Shown here: positions 21,619 to 55,307 of the stretch, in pieces
How positions within the stretch are numbered: the first letter of the stretch is position 1
How the letters are laid out: every line of letters begins with the position of its first letter
Assembly: GCA_023230565.1 (NCBI GenBank)
Contig: JALNXD010000015.1
Location: 7,410 to 71,409 of the forward strand
Direction: 5' to 3'
From: Syntrophales bacterium
GTDB lineage: Bacteria; Desulfobacterota; Syntrophia; Syntrophales; UBA2210
DNA length: 64,000 nucleotides
The notes under the pieces: model-generated
What the model was told of the DNA's origin: nothing
Database searches by the model: none
The model's input: the letters and a program-made list of their open reading frames with translations, nothing else
Made by a program: the position numbers and the translations under genes

Positions 21619-21834
21619 AATGTCTCCCTTCATTAATAACAATTAAGAATCGTTTCTGCCTGCAGAATCGGATCAGAGCCGCCTCTTCTTCATAATGCCT
21701 CATGGCATTTCAAATTCTTCTCACAGATAATGCAGTGTCGATAATTTCAGCCCACTGGGGGAAGCGGACAATACGCGCCTGCAATCCCTTTCGATCATCA
21801 CCAACAAAAACAAGGGCTCTGCGCAGCGTTTCAC

Positions 21835-22541: not shown

Positions 22542-23603
22542 CTATTCCGTCCAATCAGGATAGCTATCCGTAGACCATACTTTTCCTACATTGGTGGCGG
22601 GCAATACCAAAGACTCGTCGCTTCCATCCACATTTATTACAAAAAGTTCGGAATAGGCAAAGGGAAGGCCCTGTCGAAATCCCGTATAACAGATCTGCTT
22701 CCCATCAGGGGACCAGCACATCGCTCCTTTAGGAAAGTTACTTTCCGTCACTCTCATGATTTTGCCACTTTTAACCTCCTGTACATAGATTTGATTAAAT
22801 TTATCTCCTGAATTAAATGTAAGGAAAGCAATGAAGCAGCCATCTGGTGATAATGTGGGATATTGTTCTCCTGATACACCGTTTGTAAGCTGAATAATTT
22901 GGGGGTCATCTCCGTTTGCAATAGAATAAATATGTAGCTTTTTTCCTATTAAAGACATACCTTTCACCCAGCCAAATATTAAATTTTGCCCTTCCGGGGT
23001 AAAAGGTGATGGCCCAATGTATAAGGTGTGCCCGGCATGACTGTCATCGAGAATTCTTTTTAAACCCGTGCCGTCTCTATTTATTAAAAAAAGGCTCTCT
23101 ACAAGATCGACATGCATTCCCATATTCGATGCAAAAACTATTTTGTTACCATCCAGGCTGAAGGCAGGATAAGATAGTGTGTCTTTCGTCTTCAATATCT
23201 CTCGAACGAATGAACCTTCTTTATCAAGGATAGTAATGGTTTTGTAATTAGAATAAGGTATGACAGTCTTACAGACAATATATTCCCCATCAGGGGACCA
23301 CCGAGCACTGATGACATTTTCACGCAAGCGCTTTAATTTGCCTTGATTCAGCAGGTAAAGTTTCCTACTACTATCCTTCCCCTCTTCAATCCGATCGGAT
23401 ATGAAAAGGATTTTACCTTTCACAGGTGTCACTTTGTTGATCTCCATTCTCAAAGTTCCCTTTATTTTATCAAGGAAACTATTTTGGGCAAATGCATTTC
23501 CAAAAAACAAGAAGAGTATGCATAATGCGCTGAGCAAATACCGCAGAATTGTCGTCAGTTTTTGTTTATGGTTCAAAATCGACTCCCCATATATTCCGAG
23601 CAT
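22542..23603 (-). CDS. Periplasmic TolB-like beta-propeller (PD40 repeats); candidate immunity protein for the orphan toxin upstream
   Basis: N-terminal signal/anchor (LLSALCILFLFFGNAFA). Repeated SPDG motifs (ARWSPDGEYIV, AFSLDGNKIVF, TLSPDGCFIAF, CWSPDGKQICY). The start overlaps the last 38 nt of the toxin ORF. Confidence 0.6.
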   Translation of the reverse strand: MLGIYGESILNHKQKLTTILRYLLSALCILFLFFGNAFAQNSFLDKIKGTLRMEINKVTPVKGKILFISDRIEEGKDSSRKLYLLNQGKLKRLRENVISARWSPDGEYIVCKTVIPYSNYKTITILDKEGSFVREILKTKDTLSYPAFSLDGNKIVFASNMGMHVDLVESLFLINRDGTGLKRILDDSHAGHTLYIGPSPFTPEGQNLIFGWVKGMSLIGKKLHIYSIANGDDPQIIQLTNGVSGEQYPTLSPDGCFIAFLTFNSGDKFNQIYVQEVKSGKIMRVTESNFPKGAMCWSPDGKQICYTGFRQGLPFAYSELFVINVDGSDESLVLPATNVGKVWSTDSYPDWTE

Positions 23604-25062
23604 CGTAAAGATCGGCAGGTGAAATACGAACGTCTCTTTCTACACCCGGCAATAAATAACCAATGTTACTAAATGTATGCCATTGTAATTCACTGCAGAT
23701 AGCTCCATGATTAAGCGATTGGTTAAACAAGCCAAAAAGACCCCAGATATTATATCTTAATCCCGCAGGACTTAAGATGAGTTCACTTTGAATCCCCGCA
23801 GCTTCTTTGCCACCCAAAAGAGGCCTCACCCAAAATATATCATCATACCTTTTTGCAAAATCAGAAACATTAACGAATTGTCCTCCAGCACTGCCATAGG
23901 ATTCTGACAGACTATTATCTCCTTGATACATTCCTACATGATTAACAGTGCTTGTCGTCGCCCACTTTATCATAAGCGAAATAAATTCACGACCACTTCC
24001 GAAGAGTAGATCGCCTGGTTCACCATATATTTCCAGACCTATTAGAATTTTTTGTTTATGTGCTTCGATGACGGCTCCCGATCTCCGTCTTTCACCAATC
24101 AGAAGATGGAATAGTTTATTGATAACCGAGCCTTCATCATCCATAACAATCCAAGAGTTATACATACCATCGGCACTCGCAGCCTCTTCTGAAGGTGCAT
24201 AGCAGGGATCGTACAGCTGCCATAAACTCTTAAACATTTCCGGACCTTTATATATTTCACCCATCATGTTTGTGGTAAAATCGGTCGGATCAAATTTTCC
24301 ACTTACTGCCGTCAACCCCTCCGGATCAAGATACCGCAAGGGATTGTTCCTCACATAGGCGTAGAGGTTCAATCCATCCACGTAGCCTGCCGGATCGCAC
24401 TGCATGAAGCGGCCCAGTTTTGCAGAGTACATGCGGCTCCGGTAGTACCAGAGGCCCGATTCGCCATCCCAACGCCTGCCTGTGTAGCCGTAGGGGTTAT
24501 CGACTGTACTTTCACCGATCATAACTCCCTGGCCGTCCAAGATCGTCATCAGGCCGAAGGCGGTGTATTCGTAGGTCTCGACGATGTTCCCGTTCTCGTC
24601 AGTCAGGGCCGTCATACTGTACTGCCGGTCTTTGAGGTAGTAATATCGATTTCCGGCATCGTCTTCCATCATGATCGGGTCGTCGATGTAGAGGCCATAG
24701 ACGAAAGACCGCTGGAATTGGCTGTCTTCGTACTCTTCGATCACCTGGCCGCCATCGTAAATATAGGCAGTCGTGTGACCCCCATATGATTTTGTAACCC
24801 GCCTGTTCAGTGCATCGTACGTATATGTCGCAATAACAGATCCTGACAAGCCCTTGACCGCAACCAGCCGATTCGCCCAGTCATACTCGTATCGTTTGGA
24901 CGCATCACGCGTCATGTTACCCCTGTCGTCATAGCTCGGTTCGAAGCCTGCAATGTTTGTATATTCGTTCACTCCATTTGCCGTGCGCGATTCCTGATTT
25001 CCGTTCTGATTCGTGTATGTCCAGTTCCCCTCAGGATCATGCTGCCACTGAATCGTATCCAT
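23566..25062 (-). CDS. Orphan Rhs C-terminal cassette: last ~250 aa of Rhs core + DPxGL + 248-aa permuted papain-like (YiiX/C92, NlpC/P60-superfamily) toxin domain
   Basis: Residues 1-250 are ~90% identical by eye to the end of the main Rhs core, up to PLRYLDPEGL. Similarity ends there. The tip has GEPGDLLFGSG...STVNHVGMYQG followed later by AICSELQW, which is the His-before-Cys order of permuted papain-fold amidases. Confidence 0.75.
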   Translation of the reverse strand: MDTIQWQHDPEGNWTYTNQNGNQESRTANGVNEYTNIAGFEPSYDDRGNMTRDASKRYEYDWANRLVAVKGLSGSVIATYTYDALNRRVTKSYGGHTTAYIYDGGQVIEEYEDSQFQRSFVYGLYIDDPIMMEDDAGNRYYYLKDRQYSMTALTDENGNIVETYEYTAFGLMTILDGQGVMIGESTVDNPYGYTGRRWDGESGLWYYRSRMYSAKLGRFMQCDPAGYVDGLNLYAYVRNNPLRYLDPEGLTAVSGKFDPTDFTTNMMGEIYKGPEMFKSLWQLYDPCYAPSEEAASADGMYNSWIVMDDEGSVINKLFHLLIGERRRSGAVIEAHKQKILIGLEIYGEPGDLLFGSGREFISLMIKWATTSTVNHVGMYQGDNSLSESYGSAGGQFVNVSDFAKRYDDIFWVRPLLGGKEAAGIQSELILSPAGLRYNIWGLFGLFNQSLNHGAICSELQWHTFSNIGYLLPGVERDVRISPADLYDARNIWGVDFEP

Positions 25063-25121
25063 CGTACCTTGCTGTTCAATGATCAGACGGTTTAAATCGT
25101 CATATTCATATTGCTTTTCAA

Positions 25122-25964
25122 TTAGTTCTGACGTGAGAGAAGGTAAGGTAAGGTAGTAATGGCGCGTTCAATAGTTTCTGAAAATATGTTGCCTCTTCCA
25201 GTATAGTCTGTTTCCATGGCATAAAGGGTGGTATTGTTAATGTCCGTATAGATCCGATTCCCTTCCATACCACAATCATTATAAGAAAGGCTTTTTTCTA
25301 TCCCATTGCCCAATGTCATGGCGGCAACGCGGCCGTTCAGGTTGTAGGTAAAGTCGGCAATACTGACTTCGGACTGATCCTTGATCGAATCGGGAAGGTT
25401 AAGGCCGTTGTATGTGCGGTGAACCACAAATCCTCCCGTATCGGGGTATACGAGGTCTTCCGGATTCCCGTTCGTATCATAAAATTTTTCAACCCGTTTC
25501 CCGTCCTGCATCTCAGCCGTCACTTCATTGAATGCGTTGTACTCGAATAACACGGAATGCGTTGCATTGCCTTCATTGTAATCATCGGCAACAATCATTC
25601 TGGAAAGCGAATCGTATTCAAAATGCCGGACTTCCTGATTATTCGCATATACATCCGTAAGTCGATTCATATCGTCATACCATTTAGTTATCATGCTCCC
25701 GTCGGGACGTGTTTCCTGAACTATATTACCTGCCTCATCATAGTCGTACGTTGTCACATCGCCTGCCGCATCTTCCACGCCCACGGGACGGTTCAGGGCG
25801 TCGTAATAGGTGCGCGTCTCATTGCCCCGGAGATCTATCACGGCGGTTACGTTGCCATTCGCATCGTAGCGCCATGCCGTTGTGTGTTCCAATGCATCGA
25901 CGGTCCTGATACGGCGTTTGGCCATATGTAAAAATGTTTTATCACTCTCCCTTGTTAGTGTCAT
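25122..25964 (-). pseudogene. 5' portion of the same orphan Rhs cassette (YD repeats), separated from 23566..25062 by a frameshift
   Basis: AKRRIRTVDALEHTTAWRYDANGN...YYDALNRPVGVEDAAGDVTTYDYDEAGNIVQETRPDG is near-identical to main Rhs residues around KRRIKTIDALEQ. Reading ~25063..25140 in another frame restores LIEKQYEYDDLNRLIIEQQGTMDTIQWQ. Confidence 0.75.
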
Positions 25965-26216: not shown

Positions 26217-26462
26217 TTACTGACTCCTTTCATTAGCTGCCAGGCTGCCTTCCTCAATGCCGGGATCGACAATGAGGTGAATATGATTCGTCATCAGGCA
26301 ATAGGCATAAACCCGGCAGCCCAGCTTCTCTTTCCATTCCCCCAGATTGTCAAGGTAATACAAATAGTCGTCGTCGGAAACAAAGACAACCTGCCTGTTG
26401 TGCCCTCGCTGTATTATGTGGTGTGGGTATCCGCTTATGACAATACGGGATTTTCTGGACAT
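26217..26462 (-). pseudogene. Second Y1 (HUH) transposase fragment, N-terminal 81 aa only
   Basis: SGYPHHIIQRGHNRQVVF...TNHIHLIVDPG carries the HUH motif. It is a divergent paralogue of the neighbouring fragment and is truncated before the Tyr motif. Confidence 0.65.
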
Positions 26463-26558: not shown

Positions 26559-26810
26559 GAGAAGAGCAAAAATTATCCCCCAAATGCCTGACAAAAGGAG
26601 TATGCTTGAAAACACTTTCAAAACGAATGGCGGCATCCAATTGAAATCGACACCGAATCGATTGCTCCATGAAACTATCCTAGCTTTCCATAGTTCAGCA
26701 CCTTTCCTAAAACATACCCAATACCATCCAGCGAATACACAGATGAAGTAAGCTATTGCAAACACTAAAGGCGGCGTACTCATAAGTCTCGACGATGTTT
26801 CCGTTCTCAT
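26550..26810 (-). CDS. Small two-TM protein, possible remnant immunity gene of a deleted toxin tip
   Basis: Hydrophobic helices FAIAYFICVFAGWYWVCF and SILLLSGIWGIIFALLG. It sits where the third Rhs fragment loses homology. The real start is unclear and it may be an N-terminally truncated remnant. Confidence 0.3.
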   Translation of the reverse strand: MRTETSSRLMSTPPLVFAIAYFICVFAGWYWVCFRKGAELWKARIVSWSNRFGVDFNWMPPFVLKVFSSILLLSGIWGIIFALLGE

Positions 26811-27480
26811 CGGTCAGGGCCGTCACACTGTACTGCCGATCTTTGAGGTAGTAGTAACGGTTCCCGGCATTGTCTTCCATCATGATCGGGTCATCGATGT
26901 AGAGGCCATAGACAAAGAACCGCTGGAACTGACCGTTCTTGTACTCTGCGATCACCTGGCCCCCGTCGTAAACGTAAGTAATTATTTGACCGGTATTTTC
27001 AAGAAACTTTGAAACCAGCCTGTTCAGGGCATCGTACCTGTATGTCGCAATGACGGATCCTGACAAGTCCTTGACCGCAACCAGCCGATTCGCCCAGTCG
27101 TACTCGTAGGTCTTAGCGCCATCTGAAGTCATGTTGCCCCTTGCGTCATAGCCCGGGGTCATGCACGTAACATTTGAATATTCGTTTACCTCGTTCGGAA
27201 CCCGCTCCTCCGGACTGCCGTTCTGATTCGCATAGGCCCAGTTTTCCACAGGATCATGCTGCCATTGCACGGTATCTGCAGTTCCTTTCTGTTCAAATGT
27301 CAGACGATTCAGGTCGTTTTAGGTCTTTTCGATCCGCCTGCCGTCCTGCGTTTCGGCAATGACCCTGTGGAGCGGGTCGTATTCGAATGCCGCGGCATGG
27401 GTCTGACGGCCTTCATTGGCATTGGCGGCGCCCGTCATACGGGAGAGCGCATCGTACTGGCAAAAAGCAAGACCTGACCC
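26765..27480 (-). pseudogene. Third Rhs core fragment (internally deleted, 3'-truncated, contains a stop)
   Basis: ORF 26707..27270 reads QWQHDPVENW...YEYDWANRLVAVKDLSGSVIATYRYDALNR...YYYLKDRQYSVTALTDENGNIVETYEYAAF, then homology stops. Upstream, 27270..27480 encodes YDALSRM...FEYDPLHRVIAETQDGRRIEK, a stop, then NDLNRLTFEQ. This implies a deletion relative to the main gene. Confidence 0.7.
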
Positions 27481-27866
27481 TAACTGCTCTCCGGCTTCGG
27501 TTTTTTTCTGAAAATCGTCGCCCTGTTGCCAGCAAACGCAGGATTGACAACCCGCTTACGCCAGTTTTTATCAAACCGCGAATCCTGCGTAAATTGAGAG
27601 ACAAGATCCGAAAATCCCTCCATTTCTTCATTAACCTCGACATTCTGACCACTTTCAAGCGTAATTTCAAAACAGATCAGATCAACTGTTCCAAGATCTC
27701 TTTTGAATGCCGAAATTTTTTTTACTTCAACATAAGGAATCGAAACTATGATATTACCATTTTGAGAAATGGCGAACATCTCTCCCTTAACTTGAATGCA
27801 TGTTTGACTCAATTTGAAAACCCTACTAGCAAAGTGGTATAGTTTGCTTATCAATTTCGTTAGCAT
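27480..27866 (-). CDS. Candidate cognate immunity protein of the main Rhs toxin (128 aa, no recognised family)
   Basis: It is the first ORF after the Rhs stop (18-nt gap), on the same strand, and AT-rich like the toxin tip. The call is positional only. It has no TM segment. Confidence 0.45.
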   Translation of the reverse strand: MLTKLISKLYHFASRVFKLSQTCIQVKGEMFAISQNGNIIVSIPYVEVKKISAFKRDLGTVDLICFEITLESGQNVEVNEEMEGFSDLVSQFTQDSRFDKNWRKRVVNPAFAGNRATIFRKKPKPESS

Positions 27867-27884: not shown

Positions 27885-30800
27885 CTAAGGGTTGTTGATA
27901 AAATCGTAAATCGCTATTCCAAGTTTTCTACCTAAATAACCGCCCGCAGTTGCCCCAGCAACACTACCAGCTGCAGTTCCTGCAACTGGCGTGACAAAAC
28001 TACCCCCAATCGCACCAACAATTCCACCACCTACACAACCCAAAAGCCCAATGCTTACTTCAGCAAGTTCTCGATAAGGATTCGGCGAAGCGTATACTTG
28101 ATAAGCATCGTATCCTACACCTGCTATCAGAAGAACCGGACCAGCAATTCTAAATGCACCCCCTACACTGTTTACAATATTATTGCTGATATTCGCCGAC
28201 CCCAGAGAGTTCGGATGGGGGCCAAGGCCCGGACGGATGGCCTCAATTGGCCTGCGAACTAAGGGTGGTGTTTGTTCTCGAATTGCCTGTTTGAGTGCTG
28301 TCCGTCCTAATGAGTCATTTGGATCAAGCAAAGCTACTCCAGTTTCATATCGAGCTCTTGCAAGGCCGGCATCGCTGATTTGCTGTCCAATTGAAATTGC
28401 AATATCGGCAACTGCATCAAGAGCTATATTTCCAGTTAATGATTCTCTATACTCATCATTCCAATATAAAGATTGATATTCATTCACCGCCGTCAACCCC
28501 TCCGGATCAAGATACCGCAAGGGATTGTTCCTCACGTAGGCATAGAGGTTCAGTCCGTCCGCATAGCCTGCGGGGTCGCGCTGCATGAAGCGGCCCAGTT
28601 TTGCCGAGTACATGCGGTTCCGGTAGTACCAGAGGCCCGATTCGCCATCCCAGCGCCTGCCCGTGTAGCCGTAGGGATTGCCGACTGTACTTTCAATGAT
28701 CGTACCTCCCTGGCCATCAAGGATCGTCATCAGGCCGAAGGCGGTGTATTCGTAGGTCTCGACGATGTTCCCGTTCTCATCAGTCAGGGCCGTGATGCTG
28801 TACTGCCGGTCTTTAAGGTAGTAGTAACGGTTCCCGGCATTATCTTCCATCATGATCGGGTCATCGATATAAATGCCATAAACGAAGGACTGCCGGAACT
28901 GGCCGTCTTCGTATTCCTCGATCACCTGGCCGCCGTTGTAAATGTAGGCGGTCGTGTGACCCCCATATGATTTTGTAACCCGCCTGTTCAGTGCATCGTA
29001 CGTGTATGTCGCAATGGTCGATCCATACAAGGTGTTTACCTTGATCAGTCTGTTGGCCCAGTCATACTCGTATCGTTTCGACGCATCCCGTGTCATGTTA
29101 CCCCTGTCGTCATAGGTTGGAGTTGCGGCCGTTATGCTCGTATATTCATTTACTGCGTTTGCCGTGCGCGATTCCTGATTTCCGTTCTGATTCGTGTATG
29201 TCCAGTTCCCCTCAGGATCATGCTGCCACTGAATCGTATCCATCGTACCTTGCTGTTCAATGATCAGACGGTTTAAGTCGTCATATTCATATTGTTTTTC
29301 GTATTGTTCTATCCCAATGAAGGGTATTGTGGAAATAGCACGTTCAATAGCTTCTGAAAGTATGTTGCCCATGCCGTCATAGGTTGTTTCCATACTGTAA
29401 AGGGTGGTGGTGTCAATGTCCGCATAGATCCGATTCCCTTCCATGCCCCGGTCATTATAGGAAAGACTCTTTTCTATCCCGTTGCCCAATGTCATGGCGG
29501 CAACGCGGCCGTTCAGGTTGTAGGTAAAGCCGGCGATACTGTTTTGGGACTGATCCTTGATTGAATCGGGAAGGTTAAGGCCGTTGTATGTGCGGTGAAC
29601 CACAAATCCTCCCGTATCGGGGTATACGAGGTCTTCCGGATTCCCGTTCGCGTCATAAAATTTTTCAACCCGTTTCCCGTCCTGCACCTCGGCCGTCACT
29701 TCATTGAATGCATTGTACTCGAACAATACGGAATGCGTTGCATTGCCTTCATTGTAATCATCGGCAACAATCATTCTGGAAAGCGAATCGTATTCAAAAT
29801 GCCGGGCTTCCTGATTATTCGCATATACATCCGTAAGTCGATTCATATCGTCATACCATTTAGTGATCGTGCTCTCGTCGGGACGTGTTTCCTGAACTAT
29901 ATTACCTGCCTCATCATAGTCGTACGTTGTCACGTCGCCTGCCGCATCTTCCACTCCCACGGGACGGTTCAGGGCATCGTAATAGGTGCGCGTTTCGCTA
30001 CCTCCAGGATCGATCACTGATTTCAGATTACCGTTTGCATCATACGTGTACACTGTCGTTTGCTCTAATGCGTCTATCGTCTTGATCCGGCGTTTGGCCA
30101 AATCATAAAAATGTTTTGTCACTCCGCCCTCCTGGTCCGTCTCCATAACCAGATTGCCAACCCAATCGTATGCGTAACTGCTGCAATTACCGGCAGGATC
30201 GCATTCGAAAATCTTTCGGCCTAGTGCATCGTATTCAAACAGCCACTCTCGTCCTTCGGCATCTTTTCGCTTTTTCAGCAGATTGCGTGAATCATATTCA
30301 TAGGACTTCTCGGCCATCTTTATCCCATCGCTGCCGTACATTTCGACTTTTGTTTTGTTTCCGTTCTTGTCATATTGATTTACTGTGTAATTTCCCTTGG
30401 GTTCGATGAATTCAACGAGTCTGCCCAGCGGATCATACCGGTATTGATAGGTCCGAGCGCCGGTGACGCCATAGTCGAGAGTCTTGGCAACAGGACGGTT
30501 CAGGTTATCATATTCATAGTGCGTTACAACAGGAATGTCGCTGCTCGCATCCTTCAAGGTTCGTATTTCATCGGTCAGGTTGCCGTTGGCATCGTAGAGA
30601 TAGCTGGTGGTGGCGCCTTCCGCATCCGTAATGCTTGTCTTGCGGTTGGCCGCATCATAGGTGTAACTCGTCCTGTTGCCCCTTTTATCTTCTTTCGCTT
30701 CGAGGTTCCCATTTCCATCGTAACTATAGAGGATGGAGTTCTGGTAAGGATCCATCTCCTCGACGAGCCGGTTCATCCCGTCATAGAAGTATCGGAATAC

Positions 30801-33800
30801 GTTGCCGTTTTTATCTTTTTTTCTGATCATGTTGCCCGCCTCGTCGTAGTCGAAGTACTCGCTGCTTCCGAGGGAATCGATTTTTTCGATTACTTCGGCC
30901 CCAGAAACGATGTCCCGGGCCGTATCGTAGATGTTTTCCGTAACGGCACCGTCTGCTGTCACGGTTCTGATCAGTTTCCGGTTCGCGTCATAGTCAAAGA
31001 TCGTTTCATTGCCCAACGCATCGATCACCGCCGTTTTTTGGTTGTAATTATTATACTCGTAGTTCGTCATATACCCAGCGGGGTCTTTTTTGCTTATCAG
31101 ATTGCCATACTCATCGTAACTGAAATATGTCACTTTTCCATTCTTGTCCCTATAGAAGTAAATATTTCCGGAAGAGTTGAACGCTTTATATATCGAGGTG
31201 TATTCATATCCGTAATCGATATTGTAATTATTACCGTATGAATCGTAGGAAAGAGTCGTTATGTTGCCGAGCGCATCGGTTATTATCGTCGGGCTTCCTT
31301 TGTCATTGTAGGCAAGCGATGTGGTGATACCCTTCGGATCGGTAATGGAAGTTGGCTTGTTGATCGCGGCGTCGTATACATAGGTCCAGGCTTCCCCCAG
31401 CGCATTGGTTTTTGAAGTCATGTTACGGTGTGCGTCGTACGTAAAGACAGTAGTGTTGCCGTTCGCATCGGTATGAGAGATCACATTGTGGTTGACGTCA
31501 TAGTCGCTGCACTCGATTGTCCCGTTTTCATTGGTTACCCGGATCACGTCATGCGAGCCGTTCCAGAAAATCTTACGATAATAGCCCTTTTCATTCCAGG
31601 TTTCGGCATAACGGTTGAACCGGCTATATTGAAAATTGAAAGTATTTCCTTTGGCATTGGTATGGTAAGCAACCGTGTCGTTCTTATAGTATCCGATTTC
31701 CAGAAAGTCACCCTTCGGTAGGATGTATTTAATCATATTGTGGTTGTTCGAAGTATTTTCCTGATTCATTAGATACTGATATTCGGTCGTGTTCTCTTCC
31801 AGATCAACAAAAAATCGCAGATCGTCGCCATTACCGTAGGCATCCACGTTATAGTAGTAATAACAAGATCGCCCCGTGAAATCGGTCACGCATTCGATCT
31901 TTCCCCGGGGATTGTAGGCAAAGGTCAATGTGCGGTTAAGTGAATCCTTTATTGCCGATAACCGGTCCGGATGCGCCGCATTGTGATATTCAAAAGACAG
32001 TGAATTGCCATAAGGGTCTTCCTTCTTCACCAACAACCCATCGGCGCTGAACCGATACTTAATCATCGATTTAAAGGCTATCTCAAAGGTACTGTCAACA
32101 TTTTTTACGAGCCTGAAGGTAGTGCCGGCCGGGTATGTATAGCTTCCATCAATAGCCACGGTGCAATAGTGGGGTGCAAGATCCTCATCAAGATACACGA
32201 CATCGCCGTTAACCAGCAGAATCAACGTATCCGCATGATTCCACGCCCACCCGTAACCAAATGGTCCGTTGTAGATCAGCTTACTCATATATTTTCTTTT
32301 CACGGAGAGATCAAAACCACGGGATTTGATTTGAATGTCGGGTTGCTCGTCCTGGTAGAACTCGCCGGTAACGAGATCGACGGGATCGCCCCAGGGCGAC
32401 TGCAGGGCCTCCACGTTTTGATTTACTATATCGATTTTCGCAATATTTGTGCAATCCTCAATCCCGTGTATATTCAGCATATTTTCATGCAAATCTAAAA
32501 TTTCCATATCATTATAAAAGATGCCTTCACTGCTGACGATTTCAACTGGCTCCGCACCGTAATTCGAATCATAGAAATATTCATTTCCCAATAGATCAGT
32601 ATAATTATCAATATAGTATAAATTATCTCCGGCTCCACCGCCGTTATCTCCCCCGAAATTGTAGGCATCGTAATCAGGTCCATTACTTATAAAAAGATAT
32701 CTGTCAATCCCATTGCAAAAAACAGTCTGCACGGGAGTTATAACTGTGGCCCCTCCTTGTAATTCCGAAATTACCGCATCAATGGCAGCCATTTCTGCCC
32801 CGGTACGGTCGGAACCTGTATTTTTATGATAAAAATTCGCAATACTACTCAATTGATTGACATCCGTTAGCTCAACAACCTGAATCCCCTGTTCACGCGC
32901 AAGCATGAGACCTTTTACCGTGCTCAGACTCGGTGTATCCTGCCAATCCTCAAAAATTCGAGCTTCATTATACGAGGAGGGATACATTACGAGGTCCCGG
33001 AAAAAACGATTGAGAGGATCATCCCAGCAAATCTTTTTATAATCCATTATTTTTATAGGCCATCCGGTATTTCCATCATTGTATTCGGCTAATTCAGCCT
33101 TAAAAAAATTCCCAAAGGATTGGGTATCTATACTCCAGCGGGGGTGTACAAGAAATTTTGACTCGCTATCGGAAGAAAATGAATCGGGAGACACATAGAT
33201 CATGGTTGGAGAAAAAGACCAGTTAATTCTTCCATGGAGAAATCCGGTCGATTTCATGACTGCTTCCCGATGCCGCATGAGATATGTCTCCGCCAGAATC
33301 GCCCCTGCGGGCCCCAAAAATGCTTCCCGCATACTCCCCGGCAATGCACCGGAGTCGGACGCCTGAAGGGAGGAAACTGTTTCAAGAGCTTGTTTTAATT
33401 TTGTGACAGTTTTTTCAGATGCGGCGAGCGGGTCGAAGGCCAACGTCATAAAAGTTCCGGCTTTTCTTGACGGCCTGGGACAAAATGCATTGTTATTGTG
33501 ATCAGGCCAATTACAGCCCGGGACAAAAGATTCATTGGATGAAATAGGCTGCCCTTCGGTATCTTGTATATCACCATCAACCATCAGAACAGGTTTGAGC
33601 TGGGCTACTGCCGATATATCGCCACCACTGAAGGCTGCCTGAATTCCTGAGATTCCTCCATACCATGTGATCAGATCTGCATCATTTTGAGTCGCAGGGA
33701 TAAAATCAAGACAAAGGCGCTTCCCGGCAATTTCCGGAAGGTAGAAGATTTGTTGCACTAGAGGGTTCGTGTAACCGGTATCACTCTGGCGATATATGGA

Positions 33801-34688
33801 GAACGTTATGTGGGCACGATCATCATTCCCGATAACCTGCAAATCTTCTTTATTCAAATTATAATTGAAGGAAAAAGGTAAATTACCCGGCAGGATAGAT
33901 GACAGTCGTTTTTCCATATTTTCTTCATAACCTACATCGGCCAATGTTTTACCGGGATGATTCGAGTTCAGGTAAGTCTGAATCTGTTCTTCGTAACGTT
34001 CAAGGGCATTCTTTTGATAATCAACCTCGCCGGCTTTTACCGACCAGTCGCTGTTAAACCCCAGATATCCTTTAAAATCGAAATTGACGTCTATTGGTAT
34101 TTTCCAGCCTGAAGGGGTGGCCCAGACGTTTTGGTCCTGTGTCTCTATCAGTGTTACCGGGAAAAGGTCGATTCCTTGCCCATACCGGATTCTTTTATAC
34201 CATGGCGCCAGGGGAACCCAGCCTTTTCCCTTGTCTCCGCCGTCATCAATCCCCCGATAATTTACCAGTGAAACCCAGGCAATTGCATACGTGCCGCAAT
34301 AGACAACTGAGCCGCTTCCATCAAGAAAGGTCATTTTTACATAACGAGCCGGAATATTTGATATACGAAAAAGAGTTATAATGAGCGAGGAAATATCCCA
34401 ACTGTTACCCCTCTTAGTGAGATATGTCCCGTAAGCACCCAACCGCGAATAATCATATCCATCTTCATATTCTATATTTTCATAGACCCAGTTATAAATC
34501 TTGACGGGATCATTTTCCAATTCCGCAGCCAGCCCTTCAAGTTCCGGGGTAAATTGGCACTCTACGGTTTCCTGAGTATCGGCAGCATCAGGGGGCAAAA
34601 AGGCGAAGACTATTGACGGCATGAGACATATTACTAATAGAAGCGCCACGATTGATACCATTTGTGCATGCAGAAAAAGTTTCCTCAT
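27885..34688 (-). CDS. Rhs/YD-repeat polymorphic toxin, 2,267 aa, Sec signal peptide, degenerate transglutaminase-like N-domain, glycine-zipper C-terminal tip
   Basis: Signal peptide MRKLFLHAQMVSIVALLLVICLMPSIVFA. A transglutaminase-like core lies at ~aa 58-165. The Rhs plug GDPVDLVTGEF (~32350..32405) is followed by many YD repeats (YxYDxxGN/R) and PLRYLDPEGL ending at 28494. The 202-aa tip (27888..28493) ends in GLLGCVGGGIVGAIGGSFVTPVAGTAAGSVAGATAGGYLG. Confidence 0.9.
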   Translation of the reverse strand: MRKLFLHAQMVSIVALLLVICLMPSIVFAFLPPDAADTQETVECQFTPELEGLAAELENDPVKIYNWVYENIEYEDGYDYSRLGAYGTYLTKRGNSWDISSLIITLFRISNIPARYVKMTFLDGSGSVVYCGTYAIAWVSLVNYRGIDDGGDKGKGWVPLAPWYKRIRYGQGIDLFPVTLIETQDQNVWATPSGWKIPIDVNFDFKGYLGFNSDWSVKAGEVDYQKNALERYEEQIQTYLNSNHPGKTLADVGYEENMEKRLSSILPGNLPFSFNYNLNKEDLQVIGNDDRAHITFSIYRQSDTGYTNPLVQQIFYLPEIAGKRLCLDFIPATQNDADLITWYGGISGIQAAFSGGDISAVAQLKPVLMVDGDIQDTEGQPISSNESFVPGCNWPDHNNNAFCPRPSRKAGTFMTLAFDPLAASEKTVTKLKQALETVSSLQASDSGALPGSMREAFLGPAGAILAETYLMRHREAVMKSTGFLHGRINWSFSPTMIYVSPDSFSSDSESKFLVHPRWSIDTQSFGNFFKAELAEYNDGNTGWPIKIMDYKKICWDDPLNRFFRDLVMYPSSYNEARIFEDWQDTPSLSTVKGLMLAREQGIQVVELTDVNQLSSIANFYHKNTGSDRTGAEMAAIDAVISELQGGATVITPVQTVFCNGIDRYLFISNGPDYDAYNFGGDNGGGAGDNLYYIDNYTDLLGNEYFYDSNYGAEPVEIVSSEGIFYNDMEILDLHENMLNIHGIEDCTNIAKIDIVNQNVEALQSPWGDPVDLVTGEFYQDEQPDIQIKSRGFDLSVKRKYMSKLIYNGPFGYGWAWNHADTLILLVNGDVVYLDEDLAPHYCTVAIDGSYTYPAGTTFRLVKNVDSTFEIAFKSMIKYRFSADGLLVKKEDPYGNSLSFEYHNAAHPDRLSAIKDSLNRTLTFAYNPRGKIECVTDFTGRSCYYYYNVDAYGNGDDLRFFVDLEENTTEYQYLMNQENTSNNHNMIKYILPKGDFLEIGYYKNDTVAYHTNAKGNTFNFQYSRFNRYAETWNEKGYYRKIFWNGSHDVIRVTNENGTIECSDYDVNHNVISHTDANGNTTVFTYDAHRNMTSKTNALGEAWTYVYDAAINKPTSITDPKGITTSLAYNDKGSPTIITDALGNITTLSYDSYGNNYNIDYGYEYTSIYKAFNSSGNIYFYRDKNGKVTYFSYDEYGNLISKKDPAGYMTNYEYNNYNQKTAVIDALGNETIFDYDANRKLIRTVTADGAVTENIYDTARDIVSGAEVIEKIDSLGSSEYFDYDEAGNMIRKKDKNGNVFRYFYDGMNRLVEEMDPYQNSILYSYDGNGNLEAKEDKRGNRTSYTYDAANRKTSITDAEGATTSYLYDANGNLTDEIRTLKDASSDIPVVTHYEYDNLNRPVAKTLDYGVTGARTYQYRYDPLGRLVEFIEPKGNYTVNQYDKNGNKTKVEMYGSDGIKMAEKSYEYDSRNLLKKRKDAEGREWLFEYDALGRKIFECDPAGNCSSYAYDWVGNLVMETDQEGGVTKHFYDLAKRRIKTIDALEQTTVYTYDANGNLKSVIDPGGSETRTYYDALNRPVGVEDAAGDVTTYDYDEAGNIVQETRPDESTITKWYDDMNRLTDVYANNQEARHFEYDSLSRMIVADDYNEGNATHSVLFEYNAFNEVTAEVQDGKRVEKFYDANGNPEDLVYPDTGGFVVHRTYNGLNLPDSIKDQSQNSIAGFTYNLNGRVAAMTLGNGIEKSLSYNDRGMEGNRIYADIDTTTLYSMETTYDGMGNILSEAIERAISTIPFIGIEQYEKQYEYDDLNRLIIEQQGTMDTIQWQHDPEGNWTYTNQNGNQESRTANAVNEYTSITAATPTYDDRGNMTRDASKRYEYDWANRLIKVNTLYGSTIATYTYDALNRRVTKSYGGHTTAYIYNGGQVIEEYEDGQFRQSFVYGIYIDDPIMMEDNAGNRYYYLKDRQYSITALTDENGNIVETYEYTAFGLMTILDGQGGTIIESTVGNPYGYTGRRWDGESGLWYYRNRMYSAKLGRFMQRDPAGYADGLNLYAYVRNNPLRYLDPEGLTAVNEYQSLYWNDEYRESLTGNIALDAVADIAISIGQQISDAGLARARYETGVALLDPNDSLGRTALKQAIREQTPPLVRRPIEAIRPGLGPHPNSLGSANISNNIVNSVGGAFRIAGPVLLIAGVGYDAYQVYASPNPYRELAEVSIGLLGCVGGGIVGAIGGSFVTPVAGTAAGSVAGATAGGYLGRKLGIAIYDFINNP

Positions 34689-34772
34689 CGCTTACCTCTT
34701 CGTGATGTTATTGGTTTTGATCATTTTTTAAAGATAACTTCTTATATCTCACTGGTTTGTAGATGATGTTAT

Positions 34773-37700
34773 TTAATCAATTGCCGACAAAATGGCTTCG
34801 AGGCAAAGGCTCGTCACATAAGAGTCATTGTTCCAACTGCCGTTTAAATCCTGATGAGCGATCAAGTAATTGCAGGCATAATTTTTTTCATAATGATCGA
34901 GACCGATGATCCATGAATATAAAGACAATAGCTCGTTATCACTTAATGGAGGATCGGGATTCATCATGGCGCGTAATATGTCTGCCGGTCCCTCTGTTAC
35001 TAAATATTTAATCCACAAAAGCACTGCTGCGGTATCAATCAAAGAGGTCGCAGAGTTTATTGCCTCCTCGCTGCAATAGTATATCTCCGTAGCGGTTACT
35101 TCGTGCTTTTGATTTGCTATCCATGCATCAATACCTGTTAACGCCGAGAGCACCACATTTCCTATCAGCCCTGAAACCAGCGAAGAAACATATACACTGG
35201 GGGCATCGCCGGGCATCCAGCCGTAACAGTCGGGTTCGGTGCTTTCCAATATATTTTGGACCATATTGAACCGGAAATAATCAGTATGTTCAATATCCCG
35301 TGAAGTACACTTAAGGGCCATCGATGCCAGAACCGTATCGATCGGATCCGGGGCAAAATGTATCTGCGTTCCCCATACCCGGGTCGGTATAGGATCGGAA
35401 TCTGGAATATGGACATTATGCAGCTGACCCATTGACTGCAATCGATAGACAAAGTCATCTACATTCTGTCCGTATTTGTGGAGTGTTAAAATCTTCCTTG
35501 CCAAATAATCGTTGTTATCTGCAGGAGTTCCCCTTAAGTAGAGGAGGGCCTGGCGCAGGGCAGGGCTGATTGACCCAGCCGCATTGAATGCATTTAGCGC
35601 CTGACTGGTACTGAGCAGCCTTCTGCTCTCTTTTTCATCCCAGTATCCCTTCTTATTCTGAGTCATCTCCAGATAGGCCTTTGCTCTTGCGATTGCCTCA
35701 TTACATGTCTGTGCGGGGCTGGTTGCGTCTATAGAAACACTGACCAGTTCCGATACAGGGCTTTCTATGCCATTATCGGTTACATAGGTAGCTCCATACC
35801 AATACGTGACACCAGCCATGGCAGTCCCATCAGAAAAGCTGGTTCCGGCTAAAGGGTTCTGAGATATTCGCAGACGTGATGGTGGCGCATAGCCGCCTTG
35901 ATGGCTCTTGTTCAGGATTTCACGGTCGAAATCGCTTATGCATCGGTAGATATAATAGCCGGTAACAGTAGCGCCAGTGTAATCCTCAGGAGTCGTCCAA
36001 GTAAGGTCGACCTGGTGTGTTTGTTCGTTGTATATGGACGCAATGATGGCAGCCAGCCACTCCGGCTGTCTTTCACCAACCAAATATATTTCGCTCTTGA
36101 TATTTTCCCTGTTTCCGGCTGCATCCAACGCAAAAAACTGAAGATTGGTGCACTTATCAATCACCAGTTGAATAGGTCCTTTAAAGGCAATGGTGTTCGG
36201 GGCACCCTCATAGGGCGGATCGCCGTCTGTAGAATAGTAGATTGTGGCGTCTTCTGAACAGGTCAGTTCGACAGTCAATGGAGACGCATATTCTCCCGAG
36301 AGCATACTTGCGGTGGTGACGGGTACGGTCGTATCAGCTGTAAATACAAAAACATAGGTGTTCGTACTTCCGGAACTGTCTTCTACATCGAGGGCATAGT
36401 GATATTCCTTCCCGTCTACGGGGGATGCTATGGTTAATATAACCGCACTTTCTGTAACCGTTGCTTGATCTGTAATATCGATGCCTACTTCGTCGCGGAG
36501 CTTTACCGAGGAAATTCCCGCACCGCCGCCAGGGAGATTGATTGTGAACGTTATCTCTCCCGACCCGCCATCGTCAGTTTTTACAAGCGATCCATATCCC
36601 GGAGTGCTGTTGCTCAAGGTAACAGGTACGGTGATGCTGTCGGATGCATTGCCGTATTGGCCGATCGATGAAATGGTGTAGGTTGTGGTTCCTTGCGGCG
36701 TTAAGACCACCGAGCCTGTTCCATTGGGTCCGACAGTCCCCACACCCTGATCGATGGTAGTTGAGGTAGCATTGCCGGATGACCGCCATACTAGAGTGGC
36801 AGATTCTCCTTTAGCAAGGACCTGCGGCACAGCTTCAAGACTCACAACCGGATGATAATGAGGTGATTCGGGCGGCAGAAAACAGTTATTTCCTACCCTA
36901 TAGAGAAGATCAAATGGATCCTGGCTTCGCGCGATTCCTTTAGATATGCGAATTTCATCGATATAGCCTTTAAAATAATTCCCCCCGAATTGGTCTACAC
37001 CAATTCTTAGATAGCGATCTTGGTAGCTAAGTGGGGAAACGGTTGTATAGGCATATGTTTGATATAGAATAGAACCATTGAAATAAATCGTCAAAAGACA
37101 CATCATTCTGTAATAATCAAGGCGGTACAAGCCTCTGCGTTCAATTGTCAAATGGCCAAATCCACTATTCTCAACAGAATAGTCTGAAGGCACAGATGAC
37201 ATTCCTATCGAAACTGAATATTGATAAAATCTAATATAGATACTACCTGTAGCAGGATTATAAGCGGCTGTGATATCAAATCCATCGGGATAGTATCGAT
37301 TCCCTTTGCTTATAAGACACTTCTCTGAGGTACCTTCATCAGAGCGAAACCATAAATCAATTGTGTAATTGAAGGCACTCGGAGAATTTAAATTGCCAAT
37401 AAAATCAAAGTCGGATGAATAAGGAATTCTAAGGCAATCTCCCTGTCCATCAAGATAAAGAGAACTATGTCCGTATCGTGCTTTGGTAGTCGAGTGATGT
37501 ACATCGCCATACCTGTAAACAGAATGCCCTTTTAGGTCATGTATGGTCGTGCTGCCTTCAATGTCATCGGAATGGATGAGAAGTTTTGTGAAACCATCGA
37601 GAAAAGGTTCTGATACGTAGACTGTTTCGGAATCTTGTGATGGCGGATTCGTACCTGTTGCCGAAACAGTGAAGTACTCAGGGTATTCTAGATAAACGAG

Positions 37701-39101
37701 AGCAGTGCCCTGTGGACTGGCTGAAGAACCTTGTCCGGAGATTTCTTCTGGACCGAACGCAGGATCTGCCGGTTGTATATAACATAATTCAGAATTACTG
37801 GCAGTCCAGCTCAGACGTACCGGCCCACCAGCCCGTGCGTTACTGCACTTGAGGTTCACTGAAGGAATTACTCTAACTTCTTTGCTCTCTGTTGCCGTAC
37901 CACCGGGGCCTCGTGCCGTGATAGTGTATGTAGTAGGTTCTGTTACCGATTCTAGTGTATATGTATCATTTGCATCGACTTCACCGATGCCAGGTTCGAT
38001 TGAACATGAAGTAGCATTTGTTGCGCACCACGTCAGGATCGCCGAACCACCTGACGACACGGCTTCCGGATACACACTCAAGTTCACAACGGGGGGCAGT
38101 TTCACCATCACCGATGCGCGTGTGGTACCACCGGGACCTGTCGCCGTTATTTCATAAGTAGTATTTTCCAGAGGGGTAACATCAATTGTCCCGGACACAG
38201 GGTCCAATTCTGTGATCCCATTGACGGCGGGTTGGATAGAGCATGTATCGGCATTTAAGACACTCCAACTGAGCGTAGCTGAATCGCCAGATTGAATGAT
38301 TTCGGGATATGCGCTAAGAATTATAGCAGGCGCGACAGCAATTGTAACAGAGGCTGTTGCTTCTTGCCCAAAGGCATTTGTTGCCGTTATTAAGTAGGTT
38401 GTTGTTTCGGTTGGCGCAATTTCCCTTGCACCTCTTGCACCGACCGCTCCCAAACCTGGTTCTATAACACAGGAGCTGGCACATCCGGAATTCCACTCCA
38501 ATGTCGTTTTACCGCCGAACGGTATCATTTCATCATCTACGGAAAGAGTAACAGTCGGAATTACGTTTATCTCCACAGTATCGGTCGCTGTTCCTCCCGA
38601 ACCGGTTGCCGTAATCGTATAAGTGGTGCGGCCGCTCGGCGAAATGGACCGTGAGCCACTCTCATCCACCGAACCTATTCCATTATCAATAGTACAGGTA
38701 GTTGCGTTGGTGGAGGTCCACGTCAGCAGCGCAGTATCCCCGCAACTAATAGTGGATGTATTAACAGTAATATCGACTGCAGGTGGTGTAGGTGGCGGCA
38801 GAACTGTTACGGTTACCGTGCGTAAGGCTGGAGCACCCCATATATCATCCACGTGAAGTGTATATGTTGCAGTGGGTATTGTATCAGGATAAACAGTCGT
38901 GGAACCAAACAAAGAAACAGACCCGACATCAGGATAAATATATGCAGTAAAACCACCGGCTGACCAGCTCAAAGTCGTGGGGGAACCCTGCGTTACAGTA
39001 GAAGGACTTGCATTGAAGTAATAAACATCTGCTGAAAAAACAAGGCAGGGAATACAAGATATAAATAGAAAGAATAATATACTCAAAATCGCTTTTTTCA
39101 T
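34773..39101 (-). CDS. Giant secreted/surface protein: ~7 Ig-like repeats + LamG/ConA-like + chitobiase-C-like + FN3-like + C-terminal alpha/alpha-toroid (prenyltransferase/TED-like) repeats
   Basis: ATG 39101 with an AGGGAGGA RBS, then signal peptide MKKAILSILFFLFISCIPCLVFSA. Repeats follow the pattern SATLSW..NA.SC.I.PG.G...TTYTITATGPGGT. LamG motifs are as in the short paralogue. Also present are TIYYSTDGDPP, VDLTWTTPEDYTGATVTGYYIYR, and terminal KKGYWDE / HQDLNGSWNND repeats. Confidence 0.8.
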   Translation of the reverse strand: MKKAILSILFFLFISCIPCLVFSADVYYFNASPSTVTQGSPTTLSWSAGGFTAYIYPDVGSVSLFGSTTVYPDTIPTATYTLHVDDIWGAPALRTVTVTVLPPPTPPAVDITVNTSTISCGDTALLTWTSTNATTCTIDNGIGSVDESGSRSISPSGRTTYTITATGSGGTATDTVEINVIPTVTLSVDDEMIPFGGKTTLEWNSGCASSCVIEPGLGAVGARGAREIAPTETTTYLITATNAFGQEATASVTIAVAPAIILSAYPEIIQSGDSATLSWSVLNADTCSIQPAVNGITELDPVSGTIDVTPLENTTYEITATGPGGTTRASVMVKLPPVVNLSVYPEAVSSGGSAILTWCATNATSCSIEPGIGEVDANDTYTLESVTEPTTYTITARGPGGTATESKEVRVIPSVNLKCSNARAGGPVRLSWTASNSELCYIQPADPAFGPEEISGQGSSASPQGTALVYLEYPEYFTVSATGTNPPSQDSETVYVSEPFLDGFTKLLIHSDDIEGSTTIHDLKGHSVYRYGDVHHSTTKARYGHSSLYLDGQGDCLRIPYSSDFDFIGNLNSPSAFNYTIDLWFRSDEGTSEKCLISKGNRYYPDGFDITAAYNPATGSIYIRFYQYSVSIGMSSVPSDYSVENSGFGHLTIERRGLYRLDYYRMMCLLTIYFNGSILYQTYAYTTVSPLSYQDRYLRIGVDQFGGNYFKGYIDEIRISKGIARSQDPFDLLYRVGNNCFLPPESPHYHPVVSLEAVPQVLAKGESATLVWRSSGNATSTTIDQGVGTVGPNGTGSVVLTPQGTTTYTISSIGQYGNASDSITVPVTLSNSTPGYGSLVKTDDGGSGEITFTINLPGGGAGISSVKLRDEVGIDITDQATVTESAVILTIASPVDGKEYHYALDVEDSSGSTNTYVFVFTADTTVPVTTASMLSGEYASPLTVELTCSEDATIYYSTDGDPPYEGAPNTIAFKGPIQLVIDKCTNLQFFALDAAGNRENIKSEIYLVGERQPEWLAAIIASIYNEQTHQVDLTWTTPEDYTGATVTGYYIYRCISDFDREILNKSHQGGYAPPSRLRISQNPLAGTSFSDGTAMAGVTYWYGATYVTDNGIESPVSELVSVSIDATSPAQTCNEAIARAKAYLEMTQNKKGYWDEKESRRLLSTSQALNAFNAAGSISPALRQALLYLRGTPADNNDYLARKILTLHKYGQNVDDFVYRLQSMGQLHNVHIPDSDPIPTRVWGTQIHFAPDPIDTVLASMALKCTSRDIEHTDYFRFNMVQNILESTEPDCYGWMPGDAPSVYVSSLVSGLIGNVVLSALTGIDAWIANQKHEVTATEIYYCSEEAINSATSLIDTAAVLLWIKYLVTEGPADILRAMMNPDPPLSDNELLSLYSWIIGLDHYEKNYACNYLIAHQDLNGSWNNDSYVTSLCLEAILSAID

Positions 39102-39384: not shown

Positions 39385-39600
39385 CTTTAAGAAACATAAA
39401 AAAATGAATTAAGGGAGGATTCGGTGAAGAATGCTATGAAGTTTCGGTCGCGGAAGCAATCTTCAGGAAAAAGAAAGGATATCGAAAACTGTTGAGGATT
39501 GAAGATTGCGTTTTATTGTTGTTTACAATTCACTATATGTACTACAAATGTCAAGACAATTTTACACTGCGGAAACAGGAATTTCCAAATTGAAAGGAAT
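39385..39600 (-). promoter_or_regulatory. Conserved ~190-bp upstream element, copy B (promoter/5' leader of the long surface-protein gene)
   Basis: Homologous to 21835..22025. It contains AAACAGGAAT (39573..39582), TTGACA in gene sense, the inverted repeat GCAATCTT (39456..39463) / AAGATTGC (39502..39509), and ATCCTCCCTT complementary to this gene's RBS AAGGGAGGAT. Confidence 0.55.
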
Positions 39601-45130: not shown

Positions 45131-45156
45131 GGCGGGATATACTCCCGCCTTTTTTT
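45131..45156 (+). terminator. Rho-independent terminator
   Basis: GGCGGGA-TATAC-TCCCGCC followed by TTTTTTT. It sits between the convergent csp and gspE ends and touches the gspE stop codon. Confidence 0.65.
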
Positions 45157-55121: not shown

Positions 55122-55307
55122 GGGAACCAAGTACCTTTCTTGTAAAACGTGCGCGAATTGAGGCATCTTATGCGGGAGAAGAGGAAAAAGCAAGATATAA
55201 ATCAGGTGTTTATGTAAATGATTATGATGTATTTCACAGTAACTCTCTTTTTCTTTGGCAGTGATCTTCAAGGGATAATCTGGTAAAGTGGCTCTGATTT
55301 TTTATCC

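Follow-up and report, generated by a model that had tools for sequence, protein, structure and literature searches.

The subject of this analysis is a pair of neighbouring genes in a 64,000-nt stretch of a metagenome contig (the window). The upstream gene, here termed T, encodes a large exported protein, and the downstream gene encodes a polymorphic toxin of the Rhs type whose N-terminal part, termed N, is a carrier module. Positions of these genes and of all other features are collected in Table 1; amino acid (aa) positions are counted in the T or the Rhs protein. A first-pass annotation, made from the sequence alone, had described two co-oriented genes 84 bp apart that code for proteins of 1,442 and 2,267 aa. 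The list of open reading frames (ORFs) and the translations agree with this, and place both genes on the minus strand. The T reading frame extends beyond the ATG used here to a GTG at 39146. Neither a terminator-like nor a promoter-like site was found in the 84-bp spacer, and its content is therefore consistent with co-transcription of T and rhs. By sequence inspection only, both N-termini read as cleavable Sec signals, with cleavage between CLVFS and ADVYY in T and between PSIVFA and FLPP in Rhs.

The Rhs protein contains a YD shell (RHS_repeat PF05593, E 1e-91, in 9 stretches; TIGR01643, 1e-64), and Pfam, NCBIfam and motif searches bear out the plug motif, the DPEGL motif and the variable tip that had been read from the sequence, as inspection does for the Sec signal. 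The remainder of the protein, previously left as an anonymous non-Rhs N-region of ~760 aa, turned out to hold a domain of a known trafficking class (PMC3482391). Behind a leader of ~29 aa, Pfam detects Transglut_core at aa 59-161 (E 9e-12), and profile searches against the PAAR, VgrG, Tc and MafB families gave no match. The only solved relative of this transglutaminase (TGase) core in the alignment, in Foldseek and in a PDB profile search is the TGase-like protease 3isr of Cytophaga. The 3isr nucleophile (GVCRD) aligns with S96 (GNSWD) of Rhs, and the catalytic triad is lost in the window protein (Cys to S96, His to Tyr, Asp to Ala). Of 26 aligned family members, 25 have Ala, Ser or Thr in place of the nucleophile, and the window clade has lost His and Asp as well. 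As the nucleophile, His and Asp positions are all substituted, the TGase fold of Rhs is, judged by its residues, catalytically dead. One close Rhs-type relative (P0003, locus L003, 10001-13228) retains the nucleophile Cys (GNCWD), with its His and Asp positions altered. Inactive TGase folds are known as protein-binding modules, for example in Rad4/XPC.

The ~500 aa that follow the TGase core have no known fold: Foldseek matches the core only, and the PDB profile search finds 3isr only. AlphaFold2 (AF2), run with the family alignment, gave a confident model of aa 30-682 (predicted local distance difference test, pLDDT, 73; predicted template modelling score 0.77). A profile of the carrier retrieved 3,974 representatives of clusters at 50% identity (E<=1e-30) among 1.84 billion. 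The ends of carrier proteins vary strongly. The last 330 aa of 63 carrier proteins could not be aligned (mean column identity 10%), and the C-termini across relatives comprise DNase_NucA_NucB, NLPC_P60, GIY-YIG, domains of unknown function (DUFs) or Rhs ends. Many carrier proteins of 2,000-2,700 aa, from several clades, are YD-rich Rhs fusions. The carrier is a module of ~700-900 aa that bears either short toxins or whole Rhs cocoons, and its nature as such a module appears to be new to the literature that was searched. Several gene fragments with similarity to no more than the C-terminal part of this module lie downstream of complete carrier-toxin genes in Moraxella macacae 0408225 (L080, 13076-16046) and in loci L005, L035, L047 and L052; they are displaced cassettes like the orphans of Rhs and CdiA systems, here for the non-Rhs form.

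The domain order previously proposed for T was reproduced by Pfam, repeat BLAST, AF2 and profile searches: a signal peptide is followed by ~7 Ig-like repeats, LamG, a further Ig domain, the chitobiase-C-like CHB_HEX_C, FN3 and an alpha/alpha toroid. BLAST with one repeat unit found six of the Ig-like repeats, and a first, undetected one is assumed at aa 24-106, which makes about seven. Pfam locates CHB_HEX_C_1/Fn3_assoc at aa 935-1006. In the AF2 model, the conserved C-terminal module (C-module) consists of three beta-sandwich domains and then a helical domain, formed by the last ~310 aa. QxxxGxW repeats are present in this part, and a profile of 33 toroid domains matched squalene-hopene cyclase in the PDB (E 9e-38) together with further class II terpene cyclases; its matches to the thioester-containing domain (TED) of complement C4/C3 and to alpha-2-macroglobulin (A2M) were weaker (~1e-8). 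The C-terminal toroid is thus supported by the helical end of the model, the repeats and the profile matches. Foldseek of the C-module was swamped by tandem Ig/FN3 matches and did not report the toroid, which was established by the sequence profile. A toroid segment of ~80 aa (aa ~1271-1351, about 35047-35289) was modelled at pLDDT <50, and BLAST gaps reveal an insertion at roughly aa 1365-1405 that is missing from the partners in loci L002, L003 and L004. Since T is exported, terpene-cyclase chemistry is implausible. Covalent tagging of the thioester-containing protein or A2M type was considered as a role of T and rejected on the absence of CGEQ from the TED position; neither the window T nor 49 of the 50 partners contain the motif, and the lone CGEQ (L021) lies in a QW loop, off the TED site.

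Relatives of the carrier were collected by a word-index search with Rhs aa 1-765. The search returned 32 proteins, three of them TGase-DUF6531-Rhs proteins with 34-38% identity and the remaining ones annotated "transglutaminase domain-containing proteins" of ~1,000 aa. In each of these three Rhs-type loci, the next gene upstream codes for a homologue of the last ~620 aa of T, with no homology to the Ig/LamG part. The C-module of T aligns with the upstream genes of L002, L003 and L004 at 34-35% identity (E 1e-69 to 1e-93), the Ig repeats being absent from these alignments, and it is also matched in L008, L009 (by hidden Markov model, HMM), L088 and the homologues P0033-P0050. A T homologue lies immediately upstream in L008, L009 and L088 as well. 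The last of these, found by a reverse search from the T C-terminus, is a 6.48-Mb Desulfobacter contig on which a T homologue of 686 aa is encoded directly ahead of a TGase-DUF6531-Rhs-Tox-SHH protein of 2,771 aa. Distant carriers of the non-Rhs form, too, are preceded by giant exported proteins, in which SQHop_cyclase_C and CarboxypepD_reg repeats are present. The carrier of Methylovulum (P0032) joins the module to DNase_NucA_NucB and is followed by an SMI1_KNR4 immunity gene.

The survey was extended to 84 loci, 80 of which came from a scan of 185,579 genomes, one per species, and carrier-module and toroid HMMs were run against all ORFs of these loci (1.28 Mb). The loci belong to Desulfobacterales, Myxococcota, Nitrospirota, Acidobacteriota, Methylococcaceae, Burkholderiales, Xanthomonadales, Moraxella and Cellvibrio, and the N-T pair was also present in the Gram-positives Paenibacillus, Thermincola and Acetivibrio. 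Cultured bacteria among the carriers of the system are Methylomonas, Dokdonella fugitiva, Thiobacillus thioparus, Moraxella macacae and Paenibacillus soyae. Both flanks reach 3 kb or more in 46 loci; a toroid ORF was found within 5 kb of N in 41 of them and within 2.5 kb in 35. Each of the five loci that lack one has a large co-oriented ORF beside N that is cut by the locus edge and could hide an N-terminal toroid. Where a toroid ORF lay within 2.5 kb (52 loci), it was co-oriented with N in 49 and separated by gaps of at most 150 bp in 29; only 3 toroid ORFs in the 1.28 Mb lay more than 5 kb from a carrier gene. All-versus-all clustering of 1,682 ORFs left N and T as the sole gene families common to more than six loci. 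No third conserved gene, be it an outer-membrane transporter, a type II secretion system (T2SS) or other machinery, reached this number, and the third-largest cluster consists of antisense ORFs inside N genes. Distance matrices of the toroid and the N-module were correlated (r = 0.84; 0 of 2,000 permutations as high), a co-divergence that points at least to co-inheritance of T and N. In L010, L018, L027, L047 and L052 the genes are arrayed in tandem, for example as N-T-N-T or with N twice in succession, which indicates local duplication of the whole two-gene unit.

The toroid is the only element of T that is conserved in partner genes across all clades, with CHB_HEX_C/FN3 added in the closest clade. 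Partner matches in Pfam were SQHop_cyclase_C in 13 of 20, TED_complement (PF07678) in 5 of 20, and also Prenyltrans and MG2/bMG3. The toroid is C-terminal in the window clade and N-terminal elsewhere. The rest of T is lineage-specific, drawn from Ig, LamG, CHB_HEX_C, FN3, CarboxypepD_reg, CARDB, VWA, FG-GAP and TSP3 domains, and sizes range from ~450 to 3,000 aa. Some partners have just 450-520 aa, and a minimal T of ~450 aa consists of the toroid and one Ig. In Methylomonas methanica NCIMB 11130 (L023), a minimal pair, T has 468 aa and the N protein 2,504 aa. The T of Acetivibrio ends in three surface-layer homology (SLH) domains and is therefore a cell-wall-anchored surface protein. The upstream gene had been suspected to be a recurring partner, and the toroid gene in 41 of 46 loci strongly bears this out. 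The accompanying idea of an adhesin-coupled toxin fared less evenly: the toroid gene is conserved, but the Ig/LamG 'adhesin' array is not. A truncated paralogue of T had also been taken as a sign of a recurring partner. The gene and an upstream block shared with T are real; however, it covers only T aa 337-766, without the conserved C-module and toroid. Because it holds only the non-conserved part of T, it says little on the partnership.

The shared block of ~90 nt is non-coding and sits about 300-380 nt upstream of T, with its second copy at ~21825-21916 (minus strand) upstream of the truncated paralogue. The two copies are ~85% identical, compared with 74-81% in the adjacent coding DNA, and the 17-mer AAGATTGCTTCNGCGAC within them occurs exactly twice in the window (0.05 expected). 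An Rfam search of the locus, including this block, gave no match. Its role could be that of a promoter, operator or 5' leader common to T and the paralogue.

Table 1. Features of the window, beginning with the T-Rhs gene pair (positions in nt; AF2, AlphaFold2; T2SS, type II secretion system).
Feature	Position	Strand	Description and basis
Gene T	34773..39101	-	Exported partner, 1,442 aa from ATG; ORF, translation, Pfam, repeats, AF2
T tandem Ig-like repeats, aa 24-496	37614..39032	-	Variable part; self-BLAST repeats aa 107-181, 182-256, 258-335, 337-412, 413-496
T LamG (Laminin_G_3), aa 578-722	36936..37370	-	Variable part; Pfam E 4e-10
T conserved C-terminal module, aa ~821-1442	34776..36641	-	Beta-sandwich, CHB_HEX_C, FN3, toroid
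T alpha/alpha toroid, aa ~1125-1442	34776..35729	-	Terpene-cyclase / complement-TED superfamily; without thioester motif
T-Rhs intergenic spacer	34689..34772	-	84 bp, without terminator-like or promoter-like site
Gene N-Rhs	27885..34688	-	Polymorphic toxin, 2,267 aa; signal peptide, inactive-TGase carrier module, linker, DUF6531 plug, YD shell, Rhs core, tip
Rhs N-module, aa 30-690	32619..34601	-	Conserved; Transglut_core, 3isr and family alignments, AF2, Foldseek
Rhs predicted disordered linker, aa 691-765	32394..32618	-	pLDDT <50 over aa 683-765
Rhs DUF6531 plug, aa 767-836	32181..32390	-	Pfam 3e-14; N-terminal autoproteolysis-type motif PVDLVTGE, aa 769-776
Rhs_assc_core, aa 1994-2065	28494..28709	-	TIGR03696 4e-22; ends in DPEGL (aa 2061), C-terminal aspartyl autoproteolysis motif
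Rhs variable toxin tip, aa 2066-2267	27888..28493	-	202 aa; two glycine-zipper-like hydrophobic segments (hydropathy)
110-aa ORF downstream of Rhs	27480..27812	-	Candidate immunity gene; gene call
Conserved non-coding block	39385..39477	-	~90 nt, upstream of T; alignment
Truncated T paralogue	20224..21642	-	Signal peptide, Ig repeats, LamG; 65% aa identity to T aa 337-766; Pfam LamG
Orphan Rhs 3' cassette 1	26707..27270	-	Starts at QWQHDP junction, truncated; 76-84% nt identity to main gene
Orphan Rhs 3' cassette 2	23566..25964	-	Two ORFs, 25964..25122 and 25062..23566; 86-91% nt identity to main gene
Signal-peptide PD40/TolB-like beta-propeller	22542..23603	-	Pfam PD40 4.5e-18, N-terminus
T2SS block 1	45155-52473		GspE, GspD, TPR protein, ExeA-like AAA protein, GspC
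T2SS block 2	57741-62876		GspL, GspK, pseudopilins

Signatures of established delivery routes were searched for by scanning essentially every ORF of at least 120 aa in the window against Pfam, and T and Rhs also against NCBIfam. No PAAR, VgrG, Hcp, SpvB, TcA, MafB or two-partner secretion (TPS) domain was found in the scanned ORFs, which agrees with the earlier statement that neither the protein nor the 64 kb carries a signature of a type VI secretion system (T6SS), PAAR, VgrG or Tc toxin. Membership in the PAAR, VgrG, Tc, MafB and TPS groups was rejected on these scans. DUF4150, MIX, FIX and EagR were likewise absent from the protein and from all scanned ORFs, VRP1, TcA_TcB_BD, SpvB and TcdB_toxin_mid gave no Pfam or NCBIfam match in T or Rhs, and Haemagg_act, POTRA and Omp85, indicative of CdiB/CdiA two-partner secretion, had no match in the ORFs scanned for them. 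Within Rhs, Pfam detected no cell-wall-binding domain of the WapA type, and no NHL or TTR match was obtained at E<=0.01, so that of the teneurin-like order only the plug (DUF6531) was found.

The architecture of the Rhs protein has a precedent. Zhang, de Souza, Anantharaman, Iyer and Aravind (2012, Biol Direct 7:18, PMC3482391; sec. 19, Table 1) described an 'inactive transglutaminase' directly after a signal peptide or transmembrane helix, followed by RHS repeats and diverse toxins. They filed this class as 'T2SS/Sec-dependent', which they called the most prevalent route for polymorphic toxins, and proposed peptide binding by the inactive TGase domains as the means by which these toxins are held at the surface; for signature neighbour genes of the class, their Table 1 gives "-". 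The window Rhs shares with this class the signal peptide, the TGase fold without triad, the RHS repeats and the variable toxin, and the locus is a new member of this computationally catalogued class. In contrast to that description, which mentions no toroid or macroglobulin-like partner, a toroid gene is present here in about 90% of the loci with enough flank, and the conserved unit is ~700-900 aa rather than a TGase core of ~100 aa and is also found without RHS. Because this architecture was catalogued in 2012, a Sec-type Gram-negative Rhs is not a new idea, and the annotation's view of Sec-dependent Rhs delivery as a Gram-positive route was too narrow, Rhs delivery in Gram-negatives not being limited to T6SS and Tc. 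Its proposal of an undescribed delivery mode stands only in part: the Sec-type architecture was known, but the conserved toroid partner appears to be undescribed in the searched literature. That literature held nothing that links TGase-like domains, Rhs and a prenyltransferase or macroglobulin, and no experimental work on inactive-TGase Sec-class toxins.

Other Sec-exported YD toxins resemble the window protein in part. WapA of Bacillus subtilis, representing the Gram-positive Sec YD/Rhs toxins, likewise has a Sec signal, a YD shell, a C-terminal polymorphic toxin and an immunity gene, and serves T6SS-independent, contact-type competition. WapA is anchored by the cell-wall-binding repeats that it carries itself, without a partner gene, whereas any anchoring function here appears to be left to T. 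The source organism of the window is a diderm, as follows from the presence of a T2SS and from its closest relatives among the Desulfobacterales. Bacterial teneurin-like proteins (Raoelijaona et al. 2026, Nat Commun 17:2753; PMC13018210), found in Myxococcota, Thermodesulfobacteriota and Pseudomonadota, are Sec-signal YD-shell toxins with an FN-plug and polymorphic C-terminal domains, for which, according to the authors, no obvious delivery machinery is known. The window Rhs shares the Sec signal, YD shell and polymorphic C-terminal domain; unlike these proteins, which are defined by the order TTR-(TIP)-FN-plug-NHL-YD, it has a TGase carrier, and transglutaminase is not mentioned in PMC13018210.

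We lean, with modest confidence, towards reading the locus as a Sec-dependent, T6SS-independent two-gene system for the display and delivery of a polymorphic toxin. T and the carrier-toxin would both be exported by Sec, and the dead TGase module, a peptide- or protein-binding fold, would dock on the toroid of T. T would then hold the toxin at or outside the cell surface, while its variable arrays would supply attachment or target recognition. Rhs autoproteolysis would prime the encapsulated tip, with release on contact. Passage of the outer membrane (by T2SS, lysis or in vesicles), the target and the activity of the tip are further inferred parts of this scheme, and the T2SS 6 kb away may contribute to the outer-membrane step. 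More tentatively, the combination of a toroid T with a dead-TGase carrier could represent a widespread, unrecognised two-component platform that presents or delivers toxins without a secretion nanomachine in diderms and monoderms, with the toroid as docking site; we regard this wider claim as possible rather than probable.

Several observations weigh against this scheme. Both proteins have only Sec signals in diderms, no outer-membrane transporter is conserved nearby, and exposure at the surface is therefore presumed. A folded Rhs cocoon of ~250 kDa is a questionable T2SS substrate. Docking of N on T is likewise presumed; no T-N fusion ('Rosetta stone') protein was present among 197 family proteins, and common inheritance or a shared species phylogeny may be all that lies behind the co-divergence. 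The tip of Rhs has no homologues, the candidate immunity protein is not membrane-like, and toxicity is only predicted. The T6SS negatives apply to the 64-kb window of a metagenome contig.

Part of the same evidence would also fit other arrangements. T and Rhs might form a released, Tc-like binary toxin, a soluble complex that leaves the cell by lysis, in vesicles or through the T2SS, with T as the receptor-binding 'A-like' part and no display on the producer surface. The Rhs cocoon, the autoproteolytically released tip and the position of its gene directly behind a very large partner gene are shared with the Tc (ABC) toxins and their TcA-TcB/C order; T has lectin-like and Ig-like modules, the window T has no recognisable anchor motif, and a T2SS is present in the window. 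T lacks, however, the pore-forming, shell and neuraminidase-like domains of TcA, Rhs lacks SpvB, TcdB-mid and the beta-propeller gatekeeper, and both proteins have Sec signals. A minimal T is just ~450 aa, and the SLH-anchored T of Acetivibrio argues for cell-bound display, which leaves a released complex unlikely in our view. We give no more credit to T as a periplasmic or extracytoplasmic helper, i.e. a TED/A2M-like chaperone, stabiliser or protease shield that folds or protects the carrier. Bacterial A2Ms are periplasmic protectors, the T toroid is related by profile to A2M and TED as well as to class II terpene cyclases, some partners match MG2 and bMG3, and the small minimal T, the Sec signals only and the tight genetic coupling would suit such a role. 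It fits poorly with the many T proteins of 2,000-3,000 aa that carry VWA, FG-GAP, CARDB or SLH modules, which are characteristic of proteins with a surface location or an adhesive role, and neither thioester nor bait-region features were found in T, which has no CGEQ at the TED position and no A2M receptor domain.

Mere co-location, with T an independent adhesin that shares an operon or genomic island with the toxin and is functionally uncoupled from it, would account for the lack of conservation of the Ig/LamG part of T with the toxin and for the T-like paralogue fragment that stands alone at 20224-21642. Against this, the pairing of toroid gene and N-module persists in Desulfobacterota, Nitrospirota, Gamma- and Betaproteobacteria, Myxococcota, Acidobacteriota and Firmicutes, although the domains elsewhere are completely shuffled, and together with the co-divergence (r = 0.84) this already disfavours chance, which we consider quite improbable. 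Hardly credible is a conventional effector of a T6SS, or of an extracellular contractile injection system, with its PAAR, VgrG or adaptor gene at another site of the genome. The Rhs core with its PVxxxxGE and DPxGL motifs and DUF6531 plug does resemble the T6SS PAAR-Rhs effectors Tse5, RhsA and RhsP, and the scans were confined to 64 kb. Nevertheless, loading onto a T6SS takes place in the cytoplasm and is incompatible with an N-terminal Sec signal, no PAAR, VgrG, DUF4150, MIX, FIX, EagR or chaperone accompanies the protein, and the same pair occurs in Gram-positives, which lack T6SS.

The display and delivery system, if confirmed, would bear on an acknowledged gap, the delivery of signal-peptide Gram-negative Rhs/YD toxins, which is stated explicitly in PMC13018210 and is apparent from the lack of a listed neighbour gene in PMC3482391. 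A conserved partner gene makes this question genetically testable. The carrier family is large (~4,000 clusters) and extends over environmental lineages, among them methanotrophs, sulfate reducers and nitrifier relatives, and over some Gram-positives, so a new delivery principle, if true, would have broad relevance to microbial competition. It would also supply a modular scaffold for cargo as large as an Rhs cocoon, and give a function to exported terpene-cyclase/TED-like toroids and to inactive bacterial transglutaminases.

The tip of the Rhs protein had a weak match to Gly-zipper_Omp (E 1.5e-3, below cutoff), and no homologues were detected. From its predicted hydrophobic segments it is probably a membrane-active toxin; a glycine-zipper tip of this kind would resemble the C-terminal domain of Tse5. 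The 110-aa ORF downstream had neither a Pfam nor a PADLOC match. PADLOC also reported no anti-phage defence match, and a reading of the locus as anti-phage defence was rejected on this result. Further downstream lie two orphan Rhs 3' cassettes, the second with its own DPEGL and a different tip of ~245 aa. This second tip (window 23566-24300) carries HVGMY...CSELQWH motifs and could have a papain/NlpC-like fold, although Pfam gives no match. The signal-peptide PD40 gene overlaps the cassette by 38 nt, and its product is a possible periplasmic immunity protein for the orphan tip, which, if true, would imply a toxin that acts in the periplasm. Between the orphan cassettes, beside the abrupt truncation of the first, a weak Y1_Tnp (IS200-like transposase) fragment (window 26217-26462, minus strand) suggests an insertion or rearrangement in the cassette array.

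The T2SS cluster noted earlier is indeed present ~6 kb from T, but T2SS proximity is conserved in no related locus, and export by this route is therefore possible but without synteny support. Its two halves are separated by divergent protease genes, coding for an 852-aa peptidase C10 of the streptopain type (55271..52713) and an S8 subtilase of 799 aa that includes PA and fervidolysin-prodomain modules (55308..57707). Both proteases are probably substrates of the T2SS whose operon surrounds their genes. At the other end of the window, a sigma-54 response regulator gene (2237-3667) precedes a lysine-2,3-aminomutase-like radical-SAM gene and two overlapping ATP-grasp genes of the D-Ala-D-Ala-ligase type (4276-7641), which together look like a small beta-lysine/peptide ligation cluster.

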